A stretch of DNA of 64,000 nt from a virus. Lineage: Duplodnaviria > Caudoviricetes. The notes below the pieces were generated by a model, which saw nothing but the letters and a program-made list of their open reading frames with translations, was not told the DNA's origin and ran no database searches. Positions within the stretch are counted from its first letter, which is position 1; each line of letters starts with the position of its first letter. The position numbers were made by a program, and so were the translations under genes. This document shows positions 54,546 to 64,000 of this stretch, piece after piece. The DNA lies in IMG/VR virus record IMGVR_UViG_3300042291_000844, positions 96,001 through 160,000 of that record. One strand, written 5' to 3'.

Positions 54546-55661
54546 TTAATGTGAATCTTCTACATTATGTTTTTCTGCAAAGATTAAATAATCTGGGTTA
54601 ATAACTTTTGCAATCTTTTGTCTTTCGCCGGTTTGGTGTTTGATTACAATTCCTTCCTCTGGTACTTTTGTATTTGGAATAAAATTATTGAATGTGTATT
54701 TATCTTGTACTTCTTGTGACCAACTTCCGTAGTGTAAAATTTCTACATAAGGTAATTCCAAAATATCTTTAATCAGTAACCTAGCATTAATAACACTTAA
54801 ATACTCACTATTCTCTTTTACATCGAATCCTACGAACTTAATCTCCGTTAACCCATAATCATATCCCTTTTGGATTCCCGCTCCGTAAATCTCACCATAT
54901 AAGGTAATACCATCACCAATCTCCGGCTCCATTGTATTACTCTTAACATAATCCCACAACTTATTTTTGATATCGTATTTCCTTTCAATATCATACCAAA
55001 CATTGGTATCATAGAATCCTTGAGAATCAGAGCCTTTCTCTACATTATGTGAACCAACTACAAATTCATATTCAGTCCATTTGTTACCAAACAACTTTTT
55101 AATTCTATCTAATATAGATAATTTAGTTTTCTTAACAATACCATAACGAGCATTTGTTCCGTGAATCTTACGAGTAATTTCCACAGTGTCATCTTCAGTA
55201 AACATTCCCGGTACATTTTTTAAGTTAGGAAACTTATAGTAGACATGAAAGTGTGGGTTATCTTGATAACGAATCTTTCTACCACTTGCTAATTGAACCA
55301 TTTTAACTGGTGGTTCATATTTGTAAATACCTAAATAATCCATCATATCATCACCTTCACTAACGATTGGTGTTAACGTATATGGAATAATTAAAGATTC
55401 ACTATAAACTCCTCTTAACTTAACAGTTCTAACCCTACCACCATTACGAAGATAATTGGTTACTCCTAATTTTTCGGATAAATCAAATGGAATTACCGCA
55501 TCGGTTGTTGCACATATTACTAACTCACCAACATTATGAGCATCTTTTTTTACTATACAATTCCAACCACCAACTACTGCTAATTCAATATTATCAGCTC
55601 CTTCGATTGGTTTGATTTCATTTATTGTTGCAACGTAGCAAACTGAATTATTATTTTCCAT
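54546..55661 (-). CDS. RNA ligase, DRB0094/Rnl2 family with N-terminal OB domain
   Basis: I.PI.GAD.IE; motif I KIHGTN; YGEI.G; FDV; EGIV; AKVI...YL. Confidence 0.9.
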   Translation of the reverse strand: MENNNSVCYVATINEIKPIEGADNIELAVVGGWNCIVKKDAHNVGELVICATTDAVIPFDLSEKLGVTNYLRNGGRVRTVKLRGVYSESLIIPYTLTPIVSEGDDMMDYLGIYKYEPPVKMVQLASGRKIRYQDNPHFHVYYKFPNLKNVPGMFTEDDTVEITRKIHGTNARYGIVKKTKLSILDRIKKLFGNKWTEYEFVVGSHNVEKGSDSQGFYDTNVWYDIERKYDIKNKLWDYVKSNTMEPEIGDGITLYGEIYGAGIQKGYDYGLTEIKFVGFDVKENSEYLSVINARLLIKDILELPYVEILHYGSWSQEVQDKYTFNNFIPNTKVPEEGIVIKHQTGERQKIAKVINPDYLIFAEKHNVEDSH

Positions 55662-55665
55662 CTTC

Positions 55666-56178
55666 TTATAATTTTACTTCAAATCTATTTTTCATTTGTT
55701 CTAACTTTTCAGCAGGAACTCCATGTTGATTTACTCCACCATGTCTATTCTCTACAATAATAGTAAATACCATATAACCATACTTTTCAGCTAACTTAAA
55801 ATATTCTTCCATCTCCCATTCTTGAGTAAATGTATTTGATACTACAATCTCTGGATAGAATTGTGGATTGACTTCGTTATCTTTCATACGAATTTCGACT
55901 TGTTCTTTACACCACTTATGTGCATCTTTTATTTTAGAACCATCAAAATTATAGTTTCCTTCTTTATTATAAAAGAATTTATCTGCTTCACAAATTGCAT
56001 ATTCGTTCCAAATGAAACCTGCTAATGTTGATTTACCACTTCCCGGCAAACCCCTTACTAATGTTAATATTTTTGGTATCATATATTTTATTTCTTGTTT
56101 ATCAATAAACTCTTTTATAGCTTGTCGTTTTTCATCATTGAATACATCTTCCAATTTAATTTCTTGTTTAGTTTCCAT
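55666..56178 (-). CDS. P-loop polynucleotide kinase-like (AAA_33)
   Basis: RGLPGSGKST, EAD, VSNTFT..WE, HGVP. Confidence 0.85.
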   Translation of the reverse strand: METKQEIKLEDVFNDEKRQAIKEFIDKQEIKYMIPKILTLVRGLPGSGKSTLAGFIWNEYAICEADKFFYNKEGNYNFDGSKIKDAHKWCKEQVEIRMKDNEVNPQFYPEIVVSNTFTQEWEMEEYFKLAEKYGYMVFTIIVENRHGGVNQHGVPAEKLEQMKNRFEVKL

Positions 56179-56184
56179 ACCATT

Positions 56185-56838
56185 TTATCTATAATTTTCA
56201 ACTATTTCGTGGTGGTCAAATGTAAACATACTTTTGATTGGTTGTTTATTCATCAATCTTAATATCTCACTCATTTCAATTGGATACAATTCGTTTCCAT
56301 CACATCCCACATCCATCATTTTACCCGAACCAATTCGTTTATCAGCCGGAAAGTGAACGTGTCCATGCAAATGGATAGCTCCCCTAGCCATATTATCCCA
56401 ACTTGCTATTGGAAAGTGCATTAGAGCGAATCTTTGTTCTCCCATTAAAGGAGTCCCTACATTCCACTTAACAACTAAGTTTAAGTATTTGTTTACGGAA
56501 CTAAATAACTTTTGACAACCTTCTTTATCACTTTCAATGTGATGGTCGTGGTTACCGGTAATGATGTGAACATTTTTACAAAAAATGCTATCTCTGAATT
56601 TTTGTATTTGTTCGAATCCTCCAAAACTCCAATCACCTAAATGGAAAAGGATATCATCCTGTTCAACCTTTTCGTTGATGTTAGCAATAAGGTGTGAGTT
56701 CATTTGTTCCAATGATATGAATTCTCTACACGTTACGGGGTCTGACCATTGGGTTGTAGATGAGCATATATTAGCATGGTTGTAGTGGGTATCACTTGTG
56801 AACCATAACCTTTGTCCTTTGTTTAGATTTAATTTCAT
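56185..56838 (-). CDS. calcineurin-like metallophosphoesterase
   Basis: SDTH, LGD, GNHD, HFP, HGHVH. Confidence 0.9.
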   Translation of the reverse strand: MKLNLNKGQRLWFTSDTHYNHANICSSTTQWSDPVTCREFISLEQMNSHLIANINEKVEQDDILFHLGDWSFGGFEQIQKFRDSIFCKNVHIITGNHDHHIESDKEGCQKLFSSVNKYLNLVVKWNVGTPLMGEQRFALMHFPIASWDNMARGAIHLHGHVHFPADKRIGSGKMMDVGCDGNELYPIEMSEILRLMNKQPIKSMFTFDHHEIVENYR

Positions 56839-56854
56839 AACCTTTTCTTATAAC

Positions 56855-56886
56855 CAAATATACAAAAAAAACCTCACATTACCAAA
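56855..56886 (-). promoter_or_regulatory. Bacteroidota housekeeping-sigma promoter of the RNA-repair operon, overlapping a terminator-like hairpin (56864-56904)
   Basis: TTTG-N20-TATATTTG. Confidence 0.8.
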
Positions 56887-56908
56887 TAATTTATGAGGTT
56901 TTTTATAG

Positions 56909-56982
56909 TGGACCAGATAGGATTCGAACCTATGACCTCAACATTATGAGTGTTTTGCTCTAACCAACTGAGCTACAAGTCC
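56909..56982 (-). tRNA. tRNA-Ile2/Met (CAT)
   Basis: Cloverleaf, anticodon CAT, GGTTCGAATCC. Confidence 0.9.
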
Positions 56983-57120
56983 ATTATCGTTTAATCTAAC
57001 GATAAAATCTGATATCGTTTCTTTCAACGATAAAAAATAAGCAGGTGTGGAATCACCTACTTATATAGTGAATGAGAAACATATGAATCTCTTGCGGCTA
57101 TATCACCAAAGCCCATAAGG

Positions 57121-57234
57121 TGCCGGAGGAAGGATTGGTTACCTACACGATTTCCTTACGGAGTAATCAACTTTTTACAAAGTCACGTCTCAAGGTTTAC
57201 TACCCAAAGGGAATGCTCTTTCCGCCACTCCGGC
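57121..57234 (-). ncRNA. atypical tRNA-like element
   Basis: GCCGGAG/CTCCGGC-A acceptor stem, expanded D region, GTA in an 8-nt loop, long variable arm, non-canonical T loop. Confidence 0.55.
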
Positions 57235-57250
57235 ATATATCTTTTTTTTG

Positions 57251-57324
57251 TGGAGGATATCGGAGTCGAACCGATGACCCTCTGCGTGCAAGGCAGATGC
57301 TCTAGCCAACTGAGCTAACCCCCC
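57251..57324 (-). tRNA. tRNA-Ala (TGC)
   Basis: Cloverleaf with G3:U70. Confidence 0.95.
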
Positions 57325-57337
57325 ATAAAATTTAACG

Positions 57338-57423
57338 TACCAGAGGTGGGAGTCGAACCCACACGAGCGATTTATGCTCAATAGATTTTAAGTCTATCGT
57401 GTCTACCATTCCACCACTCCGGC
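57338..57423 (-). tRNA. tRNA-Leu (TAA)
   Basis: Class II cloverleaf. Confidence 0.95.
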
Positions 57424-57439
57424 ATTTATTCTAATTATC

Positions 57440-57874
57440 CTAATTTAGTTTACTTAATATTACCCCATTAAGTTTAGTATGATTATCATCTGGATTTATT
57501 AATATATCGATTTTATTTTTCCATCGCGGATTCATTAAATCCCTAACGTAGTAAACTCCATTGTATTTTCCAGCATTTGACACTCTTACTTTTTCACCAA
57601 ATTTAAATTTCTTTTTTATATCTCTACTTACTGCAATCACTCTATGTTTTTTAGGATTATCCTCATCTAATTCAAAGCCACTAGCCGTTTCTAACGGAGT
57701 ATCATCAGTTTGTAAAGGGTCAATTGTATATGTAGTCATCGTAACAACAAATTTCTTAATTTCCTTAACAACCTCTTCCTTTACCATAGTTTCGATTTTG
57801 AATGGATTGGGTGGGGTTACATTTGATGGTAGGATTACCGCAGTAATTAATAATATCAATATTAATCTTTTCAT
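57440..57874 (-). CDS. secreted 3D-domain (MltA/RlpA-like) protein
   Basis: Signal peptide; T.Y, TASG, IAVS.D, V.D, IDI. Confidence 0.8.
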   Translation of the reverse strand: MKRLILILLITAVILPSNVTPPNPFKIETMVKEEVVKEIKKFVVTMTTYTIDPLQTDDTPLETASGFELDEDNPKKHRVIAVSRDIKKKFKFGEKVRVSNAGKYNGVYYVRDLMNPRWKNKIDILINPDDNHTKLNGVILSKLN

Positions 57875-57913
57875 AATTTACATTTATGGTTAATAATAAC
57901 TATTACACTTTTG

Positions 57914-57987
57914 TGATTCGGAAAGGATTCGAACCTTTGGCCTATTCATTAGAAGTGAATTGCTCTATCCAACTGAGCTACCGAACC
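57914..57987 (-). tRNA. tRNA-Arg (TCT)
   Basis: Cloverleaf. Confidence 0.95.
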
Positions 57988-57991
57988 ATTG

Positions 57992-58065
57992 CGGACTGTA
58001 CGGGACTCGAACCCGTGAACTCCACCGTGACAGGGTGGCATGATAACCAACTTCACCAACAATCC
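57992..58065 (-). tRNA. tRNA-Asp (GTC)
   Basis: Cloverleaf. Confidence 0.95.
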
Positions 58066-58183
58066 AAATTTTCGGAACTTATGGATTTTCGCCACCAAAA
58101 TCTCTTTTCTCAATTGGCCTCATTGAGTGAGTGTTATCGCGTAATTCGTCATTCCTAATCTAAGGTAATTAATCTTAGATTTG

Positions 58184-58256
58184 AGCCTCCTATCGGAATC
58201 GAACCAATGACCTACTGATTACAAATCAGTTGCTCTACCTGCTGAGCTAAGGAGGC
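58184..58256 (-). tRNA. tRNA-Thr (TGT)
   Basis: Cloverleaf. Confidence 0.95.
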
Positions 58257-58265
58257 TTATGTTTG

Positions 58266-58337
58266 TACTCCCAACGGGATTCGAACCCGTATTACTACCG
58301 TGAAAGGGTAGTGACCTAACCATTAGTCGATAGGAGC
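58266..58337 (-). tRNA. tRNA-Glu (TTC)
   Basis: Cloverleaf. Confidence 0.95.
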
Positions 58338-58356
58338 ATATAATTTTATAACAATG

Positions 58357-58388
58357 TAAAGATACGAAGAATATTCCACATATCCAAA
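58357..58388 (-). promoter_or_regulatory. Bacteroidota-type promoter internal to the tRNA array
   Basis: TTTG-N20-TATCTTTA. Confidence 0.8.
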
Positions 58389-58389
58389 T

Positions 58390-58851
58390 TTAATTGTGTA
58401 TTTTTACTAAGTGGTCAGCAGCATAAGTTGCTATTGGCCCTAATGATTTATATCTTACTGAATACCCCATACCTTCAACCATACCCACTGCTTGTCTAAA
58501 CACTTCGTTAGATTTAAAGCGTGGGTCTGGGTTCAAGTCAATATCAATCCACTTAGGTTTTGGAATACCAGCCTCGCGTAATTCTTCGGCAGTTTCAATT
58601 GCAAACCAAACTTCTTGTAATAATCTAACTGAACGGATTCTTTCTCTTTCACTATTCCATCTTCTATACAATACATGTGCACCCTTTCCTTTTCTATATA
58701 AGGCAACTACGATTGCATAAATAGTTTTGTTACCTGAATTTTGTGAATCACAACCAATTAAGATTTCTGCATCGGTATTCGTAATCATATATTCTTTGAT
58801 ATATGAAATCAATTCCACTTCTTCTGCCGTATACAATTTTTTATAAACCAT
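58390..58851 (-). CDS. RNase H-like YkuK/DUF458 family protein
   Basis: LIGCDSQ, EV..AIE.A, IDID.N, KS.G..A.YAADH. Confidence 0.85.
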   Translation of the reverse strand: MVYKKLYTAEEVELISYIKEYMITNTDAEILIGCDSQNSGNKTIYAIVVALYRKGKGAHVLYRRWNSERERIRSVRLLQEVWFAIETAEELREAGIPKPKWIDIDLNPDPRFKSNEVFRQAVGMVEGMGYSVRYKSLGPIATYAADHLVKIHN

Positions 58852-58871
58852 AATTTTACCTTTTTATTTTG

Positions 58872-58946
58872 TACCCATAGTAGGACTCGAACCTACAATT
58901 GTGTGGTGTCTAAAGCCACTGCGTATTCCAATTCCGCCATACGGGT
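58872..58946 (-). tRNA. tRNA-Leu (TAG), lacking long variable arm
   Basis: Leu-type D arm (TGGCGGAATTGG), TAG anticodon, short variable loop, C31:A39 mismatch. Confidence 0.75.
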
Positions 58947-58955
58947 ATATTTCAG

Positions 58956-59041
58956 CAGAGAGTGAGGGGCTCGAACCCTCGCGGCTTTAACACCCTAACG
59001 ATTTAGCAAACCGTCCCCTTCACCAACTTGGGTAACTCTCT
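58956..59041 (-). tRNA. tRNA-Ser (GCT)
   Basis: Class II cloverleaf, G73. Confidence 0.95.
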
Positions 59042-59043
59042 AT

Positions 59044-59120
59044 TGGGGTGATTAATGGGATTCGAACCCATACTATCAGTACCACAAACTGACGTGCTGA
59101 CCATTAACACTATAAACACC
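59044..59120 (-). tRNA. tRNA-His (GTG)
   Basis: G-1, C73 and encoded CCA. Confidence 0.95.
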
Positions 59121-59125
59121 ATATG

Positions 59126-59195
59126 TTGCGTGTTTGAGGTTTGAACTCAATTGGTCATCCTTATGAGAGATAACTCTTTTCCACTAAGCCACGCA
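59126..59195 (-). tRNA. tRNA-Met (CAT), divergent
   Basis: CAT anticodon; weak D and anticodon stems; GAGTTCAAACCTC T arm. Confidence 0.7.
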
Positions 59196-59200
59196 ATGTG

Positions 59201-59272
59201 AGGCGGGTATTGGATTCGAACCAATGTTAAAGGTTTTGCAGACCTCCTCCTAACCACTCGAGACAACTCGCC
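59201..59272 (-). tRNA. tRNA-Cys (GCA)
   Basis: Cloverleaf, U73. Confidence 0.95.
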
Positions 59273-59337
59273 ATTATTTGTTGTTCACTTTTTTTGTTTG
59301 TTCACCGATAGTGAACACTCTAAATTTGTGAACATTG

Positions 59338-59410
59338 TAGTTCCATAAGGACTCGAACCCTAACTTTTTCATCCGTAGTGAAAGGTGCTATCCAATTACA
59401 CCATAGAACT
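59338..59410 (-). tRNA. tRNA-Arg (ACG)
   Basis: Cloverleaf. Confidence 0.9.
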
Positions 59411-59416
59411 ATTTTG

Positions 59417-59487
59417 CACCCCCTGAAAGATTCGAACTTTCATCTGCGGTTTTGGAGACCGATATGCTACCATTGCACCAAAGAGAT
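59417..59487 (-). tRNA. tRNA-Trp (CCA)
   Basis: Cloverleaf, G73. Confidence 0.9.
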
Positions 59488-59585
59488 AATTAATCAAGAA
59501 GATAGCCAGAAATTAGTGACGTCAAATCTCTTTAAGCTATATGAACTATCTTCTTGTTAGGATTGGTTAATTACTCCAATCTTCG

Positions 59586-59659
59586 TTGGTAATGCGGGAT
59601 TCGAACCTGCCACCTTCTCGGTATCAGCGAGATGCTCTAACCAAATGAGCTAATTACCA
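59586..59659 (-). tRNA. tRNA-Ile (GAT)
   Basis: Cloverleaf. Confidence 0.95.
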
Positions 59660-59721
59660 ATTTTCCTCACTTCTCCGGCTTATTGGACCGGATGCCATAT
59701 AGGGAGTGTGAGGAAACTCCG

Positions 59722-59797
59722 TAGGGTAAGCAGGATTCGAACCTGCGTGCTCTTCGTCCCAAACGAAGCGAGATAAACCGGACTCCTCTATTACCCT
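59722..59797 (-). tRNA. tRNA-Pro (TGG)
   Basis: Cloverleaf. Confidence 0.95.
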
Positions 59798-59803
59798 ATG
59801 TTG

Positions 59804-59877
59804 TGAACCCGAATGGACTCGAACCATTGACTCCCTCATTAAAAGTGAGGTGCTCTAACCAACTGAGCTACGGATTC
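59804..59877 (-). tRNA. tRNA-Lys (TTT)
   Basis: Cloverleaf. Confidence 0.95.
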
Positions 59878-59882
59878 AATTG

Positions 59883-59955
59883 TGGGACCTAATGGAATCG
59901 AACCATTTCCTTTGGATTTTCAGTCCAACGTACGCACCAGCTATACCAAAGCCCC
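59883..59955 (-). tRNA. tRNA-Phe (GAA)
   Basis: Cloverleaf. Confidence 0.95.
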
Positions 59956-59961
59956 TAATTG

Positions 59962-60043
59962 TGAGAGTAGAAGGACTCGAACCTCCGAACTCGAATGAGA
60001 ACTGATTTACAGTCAGTTGCAATTGCCGCTATGCGATACTCCC
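59962..60043 (-). tRNA. tRNA-Tyr (GTA)
   Basis: Class II cloverleaf. Confidence 0.95.
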
Positions 60044-60048
60044 AATTG

Positions 60049-60122
60049 TAGAAGATATAGGATTCGAACCTATGACCCTTTGGATGTAAACCAAATGCTC
60101 TAACCAACTGAGCTAATCTTCT
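60049..60122 (-). tRNA. tRNA-Val (TAC)
   Basis: Cloverleaf. Confidence 0.95.
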
Positions 60123-60127
60123 ATGTG

Positions 60128-60199
60128 TTACTCGAATAGGATTCGAACCTATACTACATCAGTCAAAGTGAGGTATGCTAACCATTACACCATCGAGCA
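60128..60199 (-). tRNA. tRNA-Gln (TTG)
   Basis: Cloverleaf, one anticodon-stem mismatch. Confidence 0.9.
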
Positions 60200-60206
60200 A
60201 TTTATG

Positions 60207-60278
60207 AGCGGATGATAGGAATCGAACCTACGTCTCCTACTTGGAAGGAAGGAGTAATAACCATTATACGACATCCGC
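60207..60278 (-). tRNA. tRNA-Gly (TCC)
   Basis: Cloverleaf, U73. Confidence 0.95.
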
Positions 60279-60296
60279 ATGTCAAAGAACCAATTG

Positions 60297-60368
60297 AGGG
60301 AAGGGAGAATTTCGAAATCTCGACCTGATGATTAACAGTCATCTGCTCTGCCTCTGAGCTACCATCCC
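60297..60368 (-). tRNA. tRNA-Asn (GTT)
   Basis: Cloverleaf. Confidence 0.9.
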
Positions 60369-60375
60369 ATAAACG

Positions 60376-60409
60376 AAAAAACCCTTAACTTTTTTATCAG
60401 TTAAGGGTT
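60376..60409 (-). terminator. intrinsic terminator immediately 5' of the tRNA array (candidate attenuator)
   Basis: AACCCTTAACT/AGTTAAGGGTT 11-bp stem then TTTTCGTTT; tRNA-Asn begins a few nt later. Confidence 0.75.
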
Positions 60410-60439
60410 CTTAAAATATTGTTATAAAATTTTTACATT

Positions 60440-60562
60440 CTATCCACGTTTTACATCCCTTAACTTACTTCTATCCTCAATCATATTGAAGACACGATTG
60501 CCACCCCAAGCACATTTCTGTGTCGGTAGATAACTAAGCGTATGTATTGTTAAAGTTGCCAT
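60440..60562 (-). CDS. 40-aa putative leader peptide MATLTIHTLSYLPTQKCAWGGNRVFNMIEDRSKLRDVKRG
   Basis: Translated by hand; TACTTATA motif 4 nt upstream; contains AAGTTAAGGG complementary to the terminator 5' arm. Confidence 0.65.
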   Translation of the reverse strand: MATLTIHTLSYLPTQKCAWGGNRVFNMIEDRSKLRDVKRG

Positions 60563-60621
60563 TGTGTATAAGTATATTAAAAACTAATTTATGTTTGTTT
60601 TTGTGTTAATAAAATAAAAAA

Positions 60622-60690
60622 AAGTAACTCATCTTCAATATGCACCATCCATGTCATGCACTGGTTGACAAAAGCCTCGATAAATTACTT
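60622..60690 (-). ncRNA. small closed RNA structure followed by T-tract
   Basis: 12-bp terminal helix AAGTAATTTATC/GATGAGTTACTT; internal TGCA/TGCA pairing. Confidence 0.45.
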
Positions 60691-60699
60691 AATATTTTT

Positions 60700-61585
60700 T
60701 AAAAAAAAATCTGGATGAGAATACTCCATCTTGTGAACCAGCTTTATAAGGGTTATTGGTTACCTTAATTTCCACTACCTTTTGAGTAGTACCGATTCAA
60801 TGTGGGTAAGTAATGCCTACCAATCATAAAGTTACAACCTACTCTCTTTTTACTCCGCCACTTCGAATCTGCCGACCCGATTCACACCTCGCGATGCTAG
60901 AAGTTTTTCGAAAGAATCACATTTACCTTGAGAGTATTTGTGGCAGTGAACGACTCACTACTATGTACACACCTTTCACTTGCAACTGGTAACCACTTTT
61001 TCTTTTATTTTTATTTGATTTTCACCATTGAAAGTAAAAGTTTTGGTTTGTAGAAGAATTCAAGTAGTGGATTACCACTAGCTCCGTTCCATTTTGAAGA
61101 ACGGAATACTATACTACTCGATACGATATCCCTATCGTCATATTTTAAGTCCACTTCATATCTAAACCTTTGGTAAGGTAAAGATAAGGATAATAACAAC
61201 ACCACTTGTACATCATCTTACCTTTCGATTTTAAGTAAACTTTCATATTGAATCACGCAATGATATGGAGAGATTAAGTCCGTACTTCTTGCAATAACTC
61301 TATGGATTATTCTTATTGGTGTCCCCACCTCAACTGAACTTCTACCTAGCCCAGTCATTAAACCATTTCACTACGGAGTTACCCTCACTAATCAGGTCTA
61401 ATGATATTCCACTTGCATACTCAAGCTCCATTCCTTTCGGTCTGAAACCGCAAATTAATTAACCAACTAATTCACTTTATCCTACTTTCGTAGTTTATTT
61501 AACCACCATATGCGGCGGGTATGTACTATGTACCACAAGGATACTATGTACAATATGTTTCGATAATTTAAAGAACTTTTTTTTG
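60700..61585 (-). ncRNA. large structured non-coding RNA, GOLLD-like candidate
   Basis: About 0.9 kb without a credible ORF, GC above genome background, many hairpins, own promoter (61592) and 3' hairpin plus T-tract, beside tRNAs. Confidence 0.55.
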
Positions 61586-61591
61586 TTAAGT

Positions 61592-61623
61592 CAAAGATAC
61601 GAAATCTTTTTCACTTTTCCAAA
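61592..61623 (-). promoter_or_regulatory. Bacteroidota housekeeping-sigma promoter
   Basis: TTTG-N20-TATCTTTG. Confidence 0.85.
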
Positions 61624-61697
61624 TTTATTTTAAACTTTTTTTTGTTATGTCTAATACCGAGTATCTTTCATCGCCTTTAAGTTTAGAACTAACTTTG

Positions 61698-61729
61698 TAA
61701 AGATACGAAAACATTTTCACATTTCCAAA
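61698..61729 (-). promoter_or_regulatory. Bacteroidota-type promoter (tandem copy)
   Basis: TTTG-N20-TATCTTTA; spacer nearly identical to the 62005 copy. Confidence 0.8.
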
Positions 61730-61801
61730 TCTTTTTTTAATTATTTTTTGTGATATTATATATAAGTATATAAAAATATACCAAACGTAAAATAATCATT
61801 G

Positions 61802-61873
61802 TAGCGGGTGAAGGATTCGAACCTCCGACCTATAGGTTATGAGCCTACCGAGCTACCACTGCTCTAACCCGCA
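61802..61873 (-). tRNA. initiator-type tRNA-fMet (CAT)
   Basis: 1:72 mismatch, TAGAGCAGTGGTAGCTCG D arm, CAT anticodon. Confidence 0.9.
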
Positions 61874-61896
61874 ATATAATTTTAAAGAACATAAAA

Positions 61897-61998
61897 CAAA
61901 GTAAGATAATGATATCCGGCGTTATAGTTTACCACTTATGGTTGGACTTCACACATTCGGTTTTATTAGATGTTGGCTTCAACCACTATCTTATTTTG
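61897..61998 (-). ncRNA. about 100-nt closed structured RNA at the transcription start
   Basis: 14 of 15 bp terminal helix CAAAATAAGATAGTG/CATTATCTTACTTTG; starts 7 nt after the -7 box. Confidence 0.45.
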
Positions 61999-62004
61999 TT
62001 AAGT

Positions 62005-62036
62005 CAAAGATACGAAAACATTTTCATATTTCCAAA
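62005..62036 (-). promoter_or_regulatory. Bacteroidota housekeeping-sigma promoter
   Basis: TTTG-N20-TATCTTTG. Confidence 0.85.
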
Positions 62037-62049
62037 TCTTTTTTAATAT

Positions 62050-62496
62050 TTATTTTACTTTGTAAGATAATCCCAATCCTAATGTAAAATCATCACCAAT
62101 TAAATTACCAATTCCCCATAAATTTATAACACTACTTGGTCTTAGTGGATTGTACATTATAAGAAAATTTGGTTTATTACCATTAAGTGTAGGTTGTAAT
62201 CCAAACCCAATAATCGCCTTATCCTCTTTTACTTGTCTAAGAACACCAAACTTCATATTATCAGATACATTTCCTGTTTTGGTATTAACTCCCGGAGGAA
62301 TTACAATTCCACCATTTTGTCCACCATATTCACCATACGGAAGTCCCGCATAAAATCCCCATCCTTTTTTCATAAATCCACCTGTAATATATCCATCAGA
62401 TGGTCCACCCTTGCGGGTAGCGGTTATAAACCACTCTTGCCCTTTTGCAGTAATACTTATTCCGAGTATTAAAGCCATCACTAATAATTTTTTCAT
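62050..62496 (-). CDS. secreted protein, possible small outer-membrane beta-barrel
   Basis: Signal peptide; alternating beta strands; C-terminal LGLGLSY. Confidence 0.6.
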   Translation of the reverse strand: MKKLLVMALILGISITAKGQEWFITATRKGGPSDGYITGGFMKKGWGFYAGLPYGEYGGQNGGIVIPPGVNTKTGNVSDNMKFGVLRQVKEDKAIIGFGLQPTLNGNKPNFLIMYNPLRPSSVINLWGIGNLIGDDFTLGLGLSYKVK

Positions 62497-62807
62497 AGTG
62501 CCTTTACGCTCTTTGTTTTTTCAAGAGAATCCTCTCTTGCCCATTTTTGTTTTAAAATATCTATTTTTTTAATTGTTAGGATTTTACCTTTAAGTGAGGC
62601 AATCTCCTTCGAAACCTTTTCGGTCCGAACCGTGCGTGCAGCGAAATCATCTTCGGTGATTTCAATCAATTCTTTTTTTCGATTAAGAACTGATATTTCC
62701 TTTTGGATTTTTTCTACCGCTTTACCATCATTAATCAATGAAGGGTCGATAGAATTACCAATACTATTAAAAAATAATAATATGGGTAAGGTAAGTTTTT
62801 CTAACAT
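62493..62807 (-). CDS. coiled-coil hypothetical protein
   Basis: 104 aa; TATTTATA at 62837-62844. Confidence 0.6.
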   Translation of the reverse strand: MLEKLTLPILLFFNSIGNSIDPSLINDGKAVEKIQKEISVLNRKKELIEITEDDFAARTVRTEKVSKEIASLKGKILTIKKIDILKQKWAREDSLEKTKSVKAL

Positions 62808-62890
62808 TTGTAATCAATAGTTAAAAGTGTAACACATATAAATACATTATTATATATTTTTAATTAAATATATAACAATAATTTATTAAG

Positions 62891-63266
62891 TGGTGGAGGT
62901 GGAGGGAGTCGAACCCTCGTCCAAATACGGATTTAATAAACTTCATTCACAAGCTTAGTTAGTTTTTCTTAACTAACAAAATATTCGGTTGGTTCTTCAC
63001 CATCGGCAACCGATAAACAATAGGTGATTCGATTTTGGGTTCAATCACTTTTCTACCTTTGTACACATTCTTTTTAAAGTCCCACGATGTGTGCGGGAGG
63101 GATTAGGCTGCTATAGCGTAATCAGCACCAACGAAAGACATTACATCTTCGAAGGTCATTGTAGATAATTCTACGTCGTTTATTGTTCGATAGGTATTTA
63201 CGGATTTCCATCTAACCCGGCTTGCAACTTACCAACTCATCGTACCTGTCAAAACCAGGCACCCCC
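62891..63266 (-). ncRNA. ssrA: tmRNA
   Basis: 5' GGGGGTGCCTGGTTTTGACAG; 3' GGGTTCGACTCCCTCCACCTCCACCA; G3:U; tag ORF ending YAIAA-stop at 63103. Confidence 0.95.
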
Positions 63267-63268
63267 AT

Positions 63269-63955
63269 TTATTTTTTATTCAAAGAACGTTTAATTAAAT
63301 TCTGAACCTTTTCATTTCTCAAATCAATATACAACATTATAGTTGCCCGATATTCATTTGAGTAATTATACACATTATGATAATGATATGAATTAAAATA
63401 ATATGCTTTACCTACTTCTAATCTTTTTCTAAATATATTCTTAAACCAATCGGGTCTATGAAATCTCTTCCACCATTTAAACTCTGCGGAATCTACTACA
63501 CAATATTCAAACTTTTCTGGTACTATAATTGGAATTTGAATTGTCAGTTCCCACTCCTCTTGCCCGTGTTCTAATACATGCGAGTGCCAAACTAAAGATT
63601 GTTTAGGTGCGATTCGCATCACCCTAGCTCTACTATCTAATTGGTTACCACTAATGTTTGCACATATCTCATACATATAAGGTACTATCGATTTCAATTC
63701 AGTTTTCTGAAAGTCGTATTGTTCCGTACCATCTTCGTACATATCTTTATACAAACTTCCATCGGAACTAATCAATGATATCCCACTCCATGCTTTACGA
63801 TACTTTCTTCGTACTTGCCAAAAGTTAGTTCTATAATCTTTGAATTTGTATTTGTTTTTTAACAACCCATATTCATCAATTAATTTATCTAAATCAATAT
63901 CAATGTCCAATTCTAAAAATGGAATACTTTTTAGTTGTTGTATAAGTTCATTCAT
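63269..63955 (-). CDS. Asp/Asn beta-hydroxylase-like 2OG-Fe(II) oxygenase (start moved to MNELIQQ)
   Basis: R.RVMRIAP...L.WH.H; Y.FNS..YH.V.N...E.R; the upstream ATG overlaps a tRNA. Confidence 0.75.
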   Translation of the reverse strand: MNELIQQLKSIPFLELDIDIDLDKLIDEYGLLKNKYKFKDYRTNFWQVRRKYRKAWSGISLISSDGSLYKDMYEDGTEQYDFQKTELKSIVPYMYEICANISGNQLDSRARVMRIAPKQSLVWHSHVLEHGQEEWELTIQIPIIVPEKFEYCVVDSAEFKWWKRFHRPDWFKNIFRKRLEVGKAYYFNSYHYHNVYNYSNEYRATIMLYIDLRNEKVQNLIKRSLNKK

Positions 63956-63967
63956 ATTAATTAATTG

Positions 63968-64000
63968 CTGTAAGAGATGGATTCGAACCACCACGATGCG
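63968..64000 (-). tRNA. 3' part of a tRNA (probably Ser, G73), truncated by window edge
   Basis: GGTGGTTCGAATCCATCTCTTACAG T arm and acceptor strand. Confidence 0.75.

Follow-up and report, generated by a model that had tools for sequence, protein, structure and literature searches.

A leader peptide with all 20 amino acids as a putative ribosome-mediated attenuator ahead of a tRNA array in lake phages

In the attenuators of amino-acid operons (trpL, hisL, leuL, pheL, thrL, the multivalent ilvGMEDA leader and pheST), the position of a ribosome on a short leader open reading frame (ORF) decides between two mutually exclusive RNA helices, 2:3 and 3:4, ahead of an intrinsic terminator. In these leaders, segment 1 contains codon runs for one to three regulatory amino acids; the genes controlled are biosynthetic or synthetase genes, and RNA that is left untranslated terminates through a 1:2 helix. 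In the antibiotic-sensing leader attenuators (ermK, bmrB-bmrCD, vmlR and similar), slowing of the ribosome in the leader ORF switches the terminator off; we know of no description of selection for a complete amino-acid set among them. Genes for tRNAs are in general thought to be controlled at their promoters and not by attenuation and, to our knowledge, next to nothing has been reported on the regulation of phage tRNA arrays. Here we describe a leader element in a 64,000-nt stretch of the phage record IMGVR_UViG_3300042291_000844 (the whole stretch analysed, hereafter the window), all genes of which lie on the minus strand. The element consists of a 40-codon ORF, whose peptide holds all 20 amino acids, and of a terminator placed directly before an array of tRNA genes. 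From its sequence and from folding models, we consider it likely to be a ribosome-mediated transcription attenuator in which the every-amino-acid leader peptide senses decoding and gates the phage tRNA array.

The closest tested precedent appears to be the whiB7/wblC attenuator of Actinobacteria, and in particular the upstream ORF (uORF) of whiB7 in mycobacteria. There, a translated uORF is followed by a terminator/antiterminator and a stall at any depleted codon leads to read-through; the uORF of M. smegmatis holds 19 of the 20 amino acids. For 18 of 20 amino acids, read-through was triggered when biosynthetic genes, tRNAs or synthetases were knocked down; the response to Trp or His requires those codons in the uORF, a single Trp codon being enough, and loss of the start codon raises read-through and expression (PMC10274678). 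By analogy, the phage leader would work alike without being a member of this group. The whiB7 uORF is enriched in Ala, its composition varies by species and is not kept complete (that of M. tuberculosis lacks several residues), and its target is a drug-tolerance transcription factor in a cellular genome, whereas the phage leader is viral, has a conserved full alphabet, would target tRNAs, and shows neither a sequence relationship to whiB7 leaders nor a WhiB7/WblC gene downstream.

With the amino-acid operon attenuators, the phage leader shares the short ORF, the exclusive helices and the intrinsic terminator, but each amino acid occurs in it about once or a few times, its 1:2 helix is weak, and its presumed targets are 21 tRNA genes. 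It also differs from the antibiotic-sensing leaders, which answer drug-bound ribosomes and control resistance genes, and from the T-box riboswitches, which sense tRNA status and control termination ahead of translation-related genes but do so through direct contact with a single uncharged tRNA, without being translated. The leaderless polycysteine short-ORF attenuators of mycobacteria resemble it in their leaderless short ORF with amino-acid-responsive attenuation downstream, and differ in being cellular and specific for Cys through Cys runs (bioRxiv 10.1101/834739). A survey of the literature on all-amino-acid leaders, phage tRNA-array attenuation and the context of the GOLLD RNA, a neighbour of the leader in the window, returned no description of the element. 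Within the known ribosome-mediated attenuators, what would be new is the sensing principle, a full alphabet, and the target class, tRNA genes.

The leader ORF (40 codons and a TAG stop codon, 60562-60440, minus strand, as for all features below) extends from an ATG at 60562-60560 to the TAG at 60442-60440, and the promoter-like motif TATACTTATA (60576-60567) is located 4 nt upstream of the ATG. Segment 1 (CUUUAAC, codons 3-5, 60549..60555) can pair with segment 2 (AAGUUAAGGG, also written AAGTTAAGGG, codons 33-35, 60457..60466), the putative antiterminator strand. Segment 3, the 5′ arm of the terminator (AACCCTTAACT, 60399..60409), can pair either with segment 2 or with segment 4, the 3′ arm (AAGTTAAGGG, 60382..60391). 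A spacer of 31 nt separates the leader stop codon from the hairpin, which together with its tract of six T residues (T6, 60376..60381) occupies 60409-60376. The first gene presumed to be gated, tRNA-Asn(GTT) (60296..60368), starts 7 nt past the T-tract, a gap too short to accommodate a promoter of its own. Folding and covariation further indicate a small hairpin within the ORF (codons 13-19, 60506..60526). An earlier note on this DNA had described a 40-codon ORF with all 20 amino acids in residues 1-30, and its coordinates proved exact throughout. The repeat it had seen between 60466-60457 and the terminator 3′ arm (60391-60382) was found again, as were the complementarity of the 5′ arm (60409-60399) to AGTTAAGGG, which runs over 9 nt (60408-60399), and the tRNA-Asn gene just past the T-tract (60381-60376), beginning at 60368.

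Relatives were collected by three routes. First, IMG/VR contigs of 160-330 kb were found through a neighbouring RNaseH-like ORF. Secondly, scanning viral and metagenome contigs with peptide profiles yielded 64 loci, which encode 43 distinct peptides. Thirdly, a protein database provided 119 distinct core peptides (cluster representatives). A blind small-ORF scan of the fetched loci then revealed a second, divergent subfamily of 44-53 aa (MKTNILH..W.ER..TL.LGYCFS..; loci L146-L160, L025, L027, L055 and L063), which has a different middle part and only its ends in common with subfamily 1. All leader samples are lake or other freshwater metagenomes. No match was obtained by tblastn with the peptides of both subfamilies against GenBank phages, and we know of no cultured phage that bears the element.

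Comparison of these relatives indicates that the leader ORF is coding. The ORF is kept in every relative found, with its frame preserved: the 43 distinct nucleotide versions contain no in-frame stop in 2195 codons, against 242 and 196 stops in the other frames and 7.8% predicted from composition. The distance between the ATG and segment 2 takes eight lengths (95-140 nt), seven of which are equal modulo 3 while the exception has a one-base bulge; in contrast, the lengths of the non-coding spacer past the stop fall into all three modulo-3 classes. The dN/dS ratio among relatives is about 0.37. The possibility of a chance ORF was rejected. An untranslated leader, of the riboswitch or T-box type, in which the RNA would bind tRNA or another ligand and the open frame would be incidental, accounts for the strong nucleotide conservation, the several conserved helices and a fold z-score of -3.75. 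It does not predict, however, a frame left open in all relatives of an AT-rich sequence despite about 7.8% expected stop codons, nor indels that keep the frame, and no Rfam family, T-box included, matches 60376-60700 at E ≤ 1; such a leader seems to us exceedingly improbable. The T-box or riboswitch reading was set aside; over 56000-64000, too, no T-box match was obtained at E ≤ 1.

Analysis of the peptide composition revealed an unusual completeness. Drawn from the window's own composition, all 20 amino acids would be found in 30 residues with a probability of 1.1e-4, and they are found in 2 of 16144 real 30-residue stretches of the window's proteins. Among the contig peptides of subfamily 1, 39 of the 43 are complete, the exceptions being three forms of 38-39 aa with 19 amino acids and one truncated ORF. 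In the protein database, 114 of the 119 representatives of this subfamily are complete (one exception is a frameshifted sequence). For subfamily 2, completeness was observed in 9/9 distinct peptides from viral contigs and in 36/39 database sequences as called (44-52 aa, with three longer, untrimmed gene calls among them). If residues were independent and identically distributed, a full alphabet would be expected in 0.3% of peptides at 40 aa and in 2.7% at 53 aa. Of the small ORFs of the same loci, leaders included, 10/644 are complete in the 40-49 aa class and 16/338 in the 50-59 aa class, and other small ORFs of these loci have a full alphabet in about 1-3% of cases.

This completeness is maintained while the rare residues relocate. 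Cys is spread over at least 7 alignment columns, but 118/119 database peptides contain it. Tyr11 is the sole Tyr only in forms without the VDYI block; one of these is the 40-aa form of the window, in which 14 codons are gone and Tyr11, Val24, Asp30 and Lys16 take their place. Other sites substitute for one another in the same manner (Pro13/Pro31; Arg16/Arg23/Arg49; Glu18/Glu29). When residues were shuffled within columns, 7.8 +/- 1.5 peptides of 14 were complete, against 13 observed (P = 5e-5). A tree-aware redraw, in which the inferred substitutions were kept and the new residue was drawn at random, left on average 6-10 of the 43 peptides complete and never more than 36 in 2000 runs, whereas 39 are complete among the real sequences, a comparison whose P value is rough given the short tree and a possible blur from recombination. 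These patterns show that the full alphabet is under selection, and not plainly inherited at fixed positions.

A stand-alone small protein followed by an ordinary terminator, with the full alphabet and the repeat as by-products, would fit the moderate purifying selection measured by dN/dS (0.37), the conserved peptide blocks, among them GKVDYI and LGYCFS, and the label of hypothetical protein that gene callers assign to the ORF. The peptide has no match to a Pfam family, however, and a constraint based on a protein fold does not predict that Cys, Tyr, Pro and Arg shift position freely and are never lost. It would also leave aside the covariation of the 2:3 complementarity, rebuilt from unrelated stems in subfamily 2, and the location of the ORF, always directly ahead of a terminator and a tRNA gene. 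We therefore regard a stand-alone protein as very improbable. The set of 20 amino acids is completed 2-7 codons (mostly 4) upstream of segment 2, inside the zone where a stalled ribosome would leave segment 2 free. The leader contains no codon run, and 5-10 amino acids occur once each.

The codons singled out in the earlier note as unusual are indeed rare in the genome, with shares of their families of 0.07 for ACG, 0.10 for CCG, 0.09 for CAG, 0.05 for GGC, 0.04 for GTC, 0.18 for GAG and 0.11 for AGG. The GC content at third codon positions (GC3) of the window leader, 0.30, is not significant, being matched by 12% of 40-codon stretches. Across the leaders, rare G-ending codons are enriched (GAG 0.61 vs 0.18, GUG 0.60 vs 0.07, CCG 0.55 vs 0.10).

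The 2:3, 3:4 and 1:2 pairings are all conserved with covariation in the alignments. The terminator is a hairpin of 10-14 bp followed by T6, located 7 nt before tRNA-Asn, and RNAalifold analysis of a 44-sequence alignment revealed four of its pairs changed on both sides. In every sequence, the best partner within the ORF for the terminator 5′ arm is the segment 2 site, with a dG of -12 to -18 kcal/mol, and the 2:3 duplex is about as strong as the terminator hairpin. Compensatory changes at three internal pairs (U-A to C-G, A-U to G-C, and G-C to A-U) preserve the pairing between segment 2 and the 5′ arm; segment 4 follows these changes, sometimes through G-U, indicating an RNA pairing and not a DNA repeat. 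Subfamily 2 has terminator stems of unrelated sequence (GCCCUGG, UCCUGGUU, GCCCCG, AAGCCUC), each with a complementary segment 2 in its ORF. Segment 1 is the best 5′-end partner of segment 2 in 38/38 distinct versions (ORF nt 8-15(20), dG -6 to -13.6 kcal/mol), with a compensatory change, UUGAC/GUCAG, in L094 and L143. The stems of the ORF hairpin at codons 13-19 covary as well (CACA/UGUG, CAUU/AAUG, CUCA/UGAG), tied to the replacements Q15L and C17N. The bases of a second ORF helix, ACAUAC/GUAUGU (60540-60545 / 60490-60495), are near-invariant among relatives, with one mismatch in the window. These helices inside the ORF may act as pause or timing elements.

To relate these pairings to the ribosome position, we modelled the transcript before segment 4 exists, with 29 nt masked as the ribosome. 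The probability of 2:3 was about 1 without a ribosome, or with a ribosome up to about 5 codons before segment 2, and fell to 0-0.17 with the ribosome on segment 2 or on the stop codon (about the last 6-10 codons). Folding energies also place 2:3 ahead of 1:2 even without a ribosome. The leader would accordingly gauge the timely arrival of a ribosome at the end of the ORF, read-through being the default. The trp- and his-type layout claimed in the earlier note holds as far as the exclusive 2:3 and 3:4 helices are concerned, and does not hold as a strict trp-type relay of 1:2, 2:3 and 3:4. All three comparative checks that the note had proposed for relatives, a retained ORF, full amino-acid coverage and compensatory pairing, speak for its interpretation.

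In the proposed mechanism, transcription would begin a few bases 5′ of the ATG and the ORF would be translated while the RNA polymerase advances. A ribosome on pace would be on the last 8-10 codons or on the stop codon when segment 3 emerges, and would bury segment 2; the 3:4 terminator would then form and transcription would halt 7 nt before tRNA-Asn. If a ribosome lags at any codon whose charged tRNA is scarce, or if no ribosome is loaded, 2:3 would form once segment 3 is made, no terminator would appear, and the polymerase would enter the 21 tRNA genes. More tRNA would speed up translation of the leader and shut the gate, which amounts to negative feedback on decoding capacity.

The polarity of this switch, which we take from the masking model, could be the reverse. 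An untranslated RNA would then form 1:2 together with the terminator, and translation would melt 1:2 and allow read-through, so that tRNAs would be made only while translation works. The conservation of 1:2 with its compensatory change fits such a polarity, as do the minimum-free-energy fold of the full RNA, in which 1:2 joins the terminator, and the location of segment 2, mostly outside the footprint of a ribosome on the stop codon. The 1:2 helix (-7.7 kcal/mol in the window) is, however, usually weaker than 2:3, and it would be displaced before segment 4 exists, as the model without a ribosome indicates. Positive feedback, moreover, offers no reason for keeping 20 amino acids, and in whiB7 the loss of the start codon raises read-through. 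Reversed polarity is, in our estimation, distinctly unlikely.

The physiological trigger presumably lies in decoding itself. On balance, we lean towards the view that, in giant lake phages, such a complete-alphabet leader serves as a universal sensor of decoding capacity, a shortage of any one charged tRNA opening the whole tRNA set; host codon mismatch, host shut-off or host anticodon nucleases are possible causes of such a shortage. The same switch could respond, not to each tRNA, but to the general status of translation, such as ribosome availability, host shut-off, ribosome-directed toxins or drugs, or infection stage, in which case the transit time through an ORF of 40-53 codons, many of them slow, would count for more than the full alphabet. 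Read-through by default when no ribosome arrives in time, as in the folding model, and the enrichment of the rare codons GAG, GUG and CCG are compatible with a timer of this kind, and whiB7-type uORFs answer ribosome-targeting drugs too (PMC10274678). A pure timer, however, needs no full alphabet, whereas coverage is kept by residue relocation in two subfamilies, and the regulated genes are tRNAs for those very amino acids. A response to translation status in general is the alternative to which we would give some weight, while considering it unlikely.

If the leader is such a universal sensor, it would be the first known case of feedback control over viral tRNA genes, and it would amount to a natural device selected for holding all 20 amino acids, whatever their order. 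The full-alphabet leader would represent a new design principle for sensing, tying phage tRNA supply to real-time decoding speed, and would give a testable handle on the arms race over tRNA depletion and anticodon nucleases. The 190-nt element could also act as a universal reporter of translation stress.

Several observations weigh against the attenuator reading or restrict it. Full-length equilibrium folding favours the terminator in all ribosome states (window and L081), which implies that the decision of the switch must be kinetic, as it likewise is in classical attenuators. The last pair of segment 2 lies 14 nt before the stop codon in 48/60 loci, right at the limit of what a terminating ribosome covers; in most other loci the distance is 11 or 17 nt, and subfamily 2 shows values from 9 to 22 nt. 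Third-codon positions are barely more variable than the others (0.31 vs 0.25), and some invariant residues (His7, Met24-Phe25) sit in an invariant RNA helix, so that part of the conservation acts at the RNA level. Among the relatives of the window's 40-aa form, two rare variants (P0119 and P0120) lack Glu, one of them together with Tyr, showing that the full alphabet is not absolute in the short-form clade. The match of the leader codons to phage anticodons is weak, 32/39 strictly readable (82%) against a genome mean of 78%, and is equalled by 39% of genome stretches, the mean of the leader family being 0.85. Coupling of transcription and translation in the host, on which the mechanism depends, is presumed.

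Further points on this side come from RNA-library contigs of four lake metatranscriptomes, which may contain DNA, give no starts, ends or strand, and are uninformative in their uncovered parts. Only GOLLD (60764-61523) is clearly expressed in them, with a depth of hundreds to thousands, whereas the depth over the leader is only about 3 (0-5 in the leader and tRNA bins) and could represent DNA carry-over. One contig (60458-60632) bridges the presumed promoter, so that read-through from upstream is possible. Another contig, of 151 nt, ends exactly at 60376, the last T of the terminator, which is at most a weak hint of termination.

Regarding the start of the transcript, TATACTTATA would act as the promoter of the leader. 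The earlier note had taken this motif for a late one; the pattern TATAYWTATW occurs 11 times in the window against 14.7 expected, a total not above chance and counts that do not decide whether the motif is late. Its placement is more suggestive, being intergenic and strand-specific, with 7 of 8 coding-strand copies of TATA[CT][TA]TAT[AT] in the non-coding 14.5% of the window. An identical 10-mer precedes GOLLD at 61770-61761, and a similar motif is found 4-14 nt 5′ of the leader ATG in all relatives, which suggests a leaderless or nearly leaderless mRNA. A scan of the window with the sigma-70 consensus showed no enrichment (15 found vs 17.8 expected), and none of the sites made a convincing promoter of host type ahead of the leader. 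The majority of the window genes have A-rich upstream regions without a Shine-Dalgarno sequence, and its absence at the leader is therefore no argument against translation.

The position of the leader ahead of a tRNA array is conserved across the loci compared. In subfamily 1, the first gene after the terminator is tRNA-Asn(GTT) in 61/63 loci, with arrays of 10-20 tRNAs or more behind it, and in subfamily 2 the arrays begin with tRNA-Phe(GAA) after the leader terminator. In the window, the presumed regulated unit (57250..60368) would comprise 21 tRNA genes, from Asn to Ala and for 19 amino acids, with two ORFs. A second strong terminator-like hairpin with a T-run is located at 57064-57037, after tRNA-Ala and before the last tRNA-Met (56982-56908), and the gated transcription unit probably ends there. 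Between tRNA-Cys and tRNA-His, a sub-threshold tRNA match (59126-59195; 22.9 bits against a gathering score of 29) may correspond to a degenerate or unusual tRNA. Over 100 viral contigs contain relatives of the RNaseH-like ORF inside the array (PF04308, 153 aa, 58390-58851), at 53-99% identity and always amid tRNA genes.

Directly after the array, the region 54546-56838 encodes a calcineurin-like phosphoesterase, an AAA_33 P-loop kinase and an RNA ligase (PF09414), a trio that, by sequence, resembles the tRNA-repair enzymes that counter anticodon nucleases. It fits a phage under tRNA-damage pressure, without proving such pressure. The earlier note had connected the leader with anticodon-nuclease attack, a link for which this adjacent repair-like trio is the sole support and which we can only infer.

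The leader is an element separate from GOLLD. The RNA was identified by an Rfam match (RF02032, 61121-60712, 265 bits), its 5′ half reaching about 61520, and the possibility that the leader forms part of it was rejected, the match ending at 60712, 136 nt upstream of the TATACTTATA motif of the leader. GOLLD has been described in the literature as 'often near tRNA islands' and downstream of a Met-tRNA, with which the window agrees, tRNA-Met (61873-61801) being located 5′ of it. Upstream of the leader, GOLLD was found in 13/13 subfamily-1 loci scanned, but it was not seen in the 1.2 kb upstream of subfamily-2 leaders, which indicates that the leader travels with tRNA arrays and not with GOLLD as such. 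Should the leader be a switch, its adjacency would give this RNA a defined regulatory neighbour.

Between GOLLD and the leader, a conserved element resembling a tRNA and about 65 nt long was located at 60690-60615. It is formed of a 12-bp closing stem and two inner hairpins followed by the U-run, and matches no Rfam family. Copies of 77-90% identity are found between tRNA genes within the arrays of other phages (L009, 2942-2990; L035, 2736-2798; L015, 6747-6810), and in many relatives, where it lies about 148 nt 5′ of the leader, ARAGORN reports the element as an odd tRNA whose anticodon has 2 or 4 bases. Further upstream, the window encodes a transfer-messenger RNA (tmRNA, 63266-62891) with an unusually long tag of 24 residues ending in AIAA. 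In relatives, the tmRNA tag has either the same long form or a short form (GVNNYALAA in L005).

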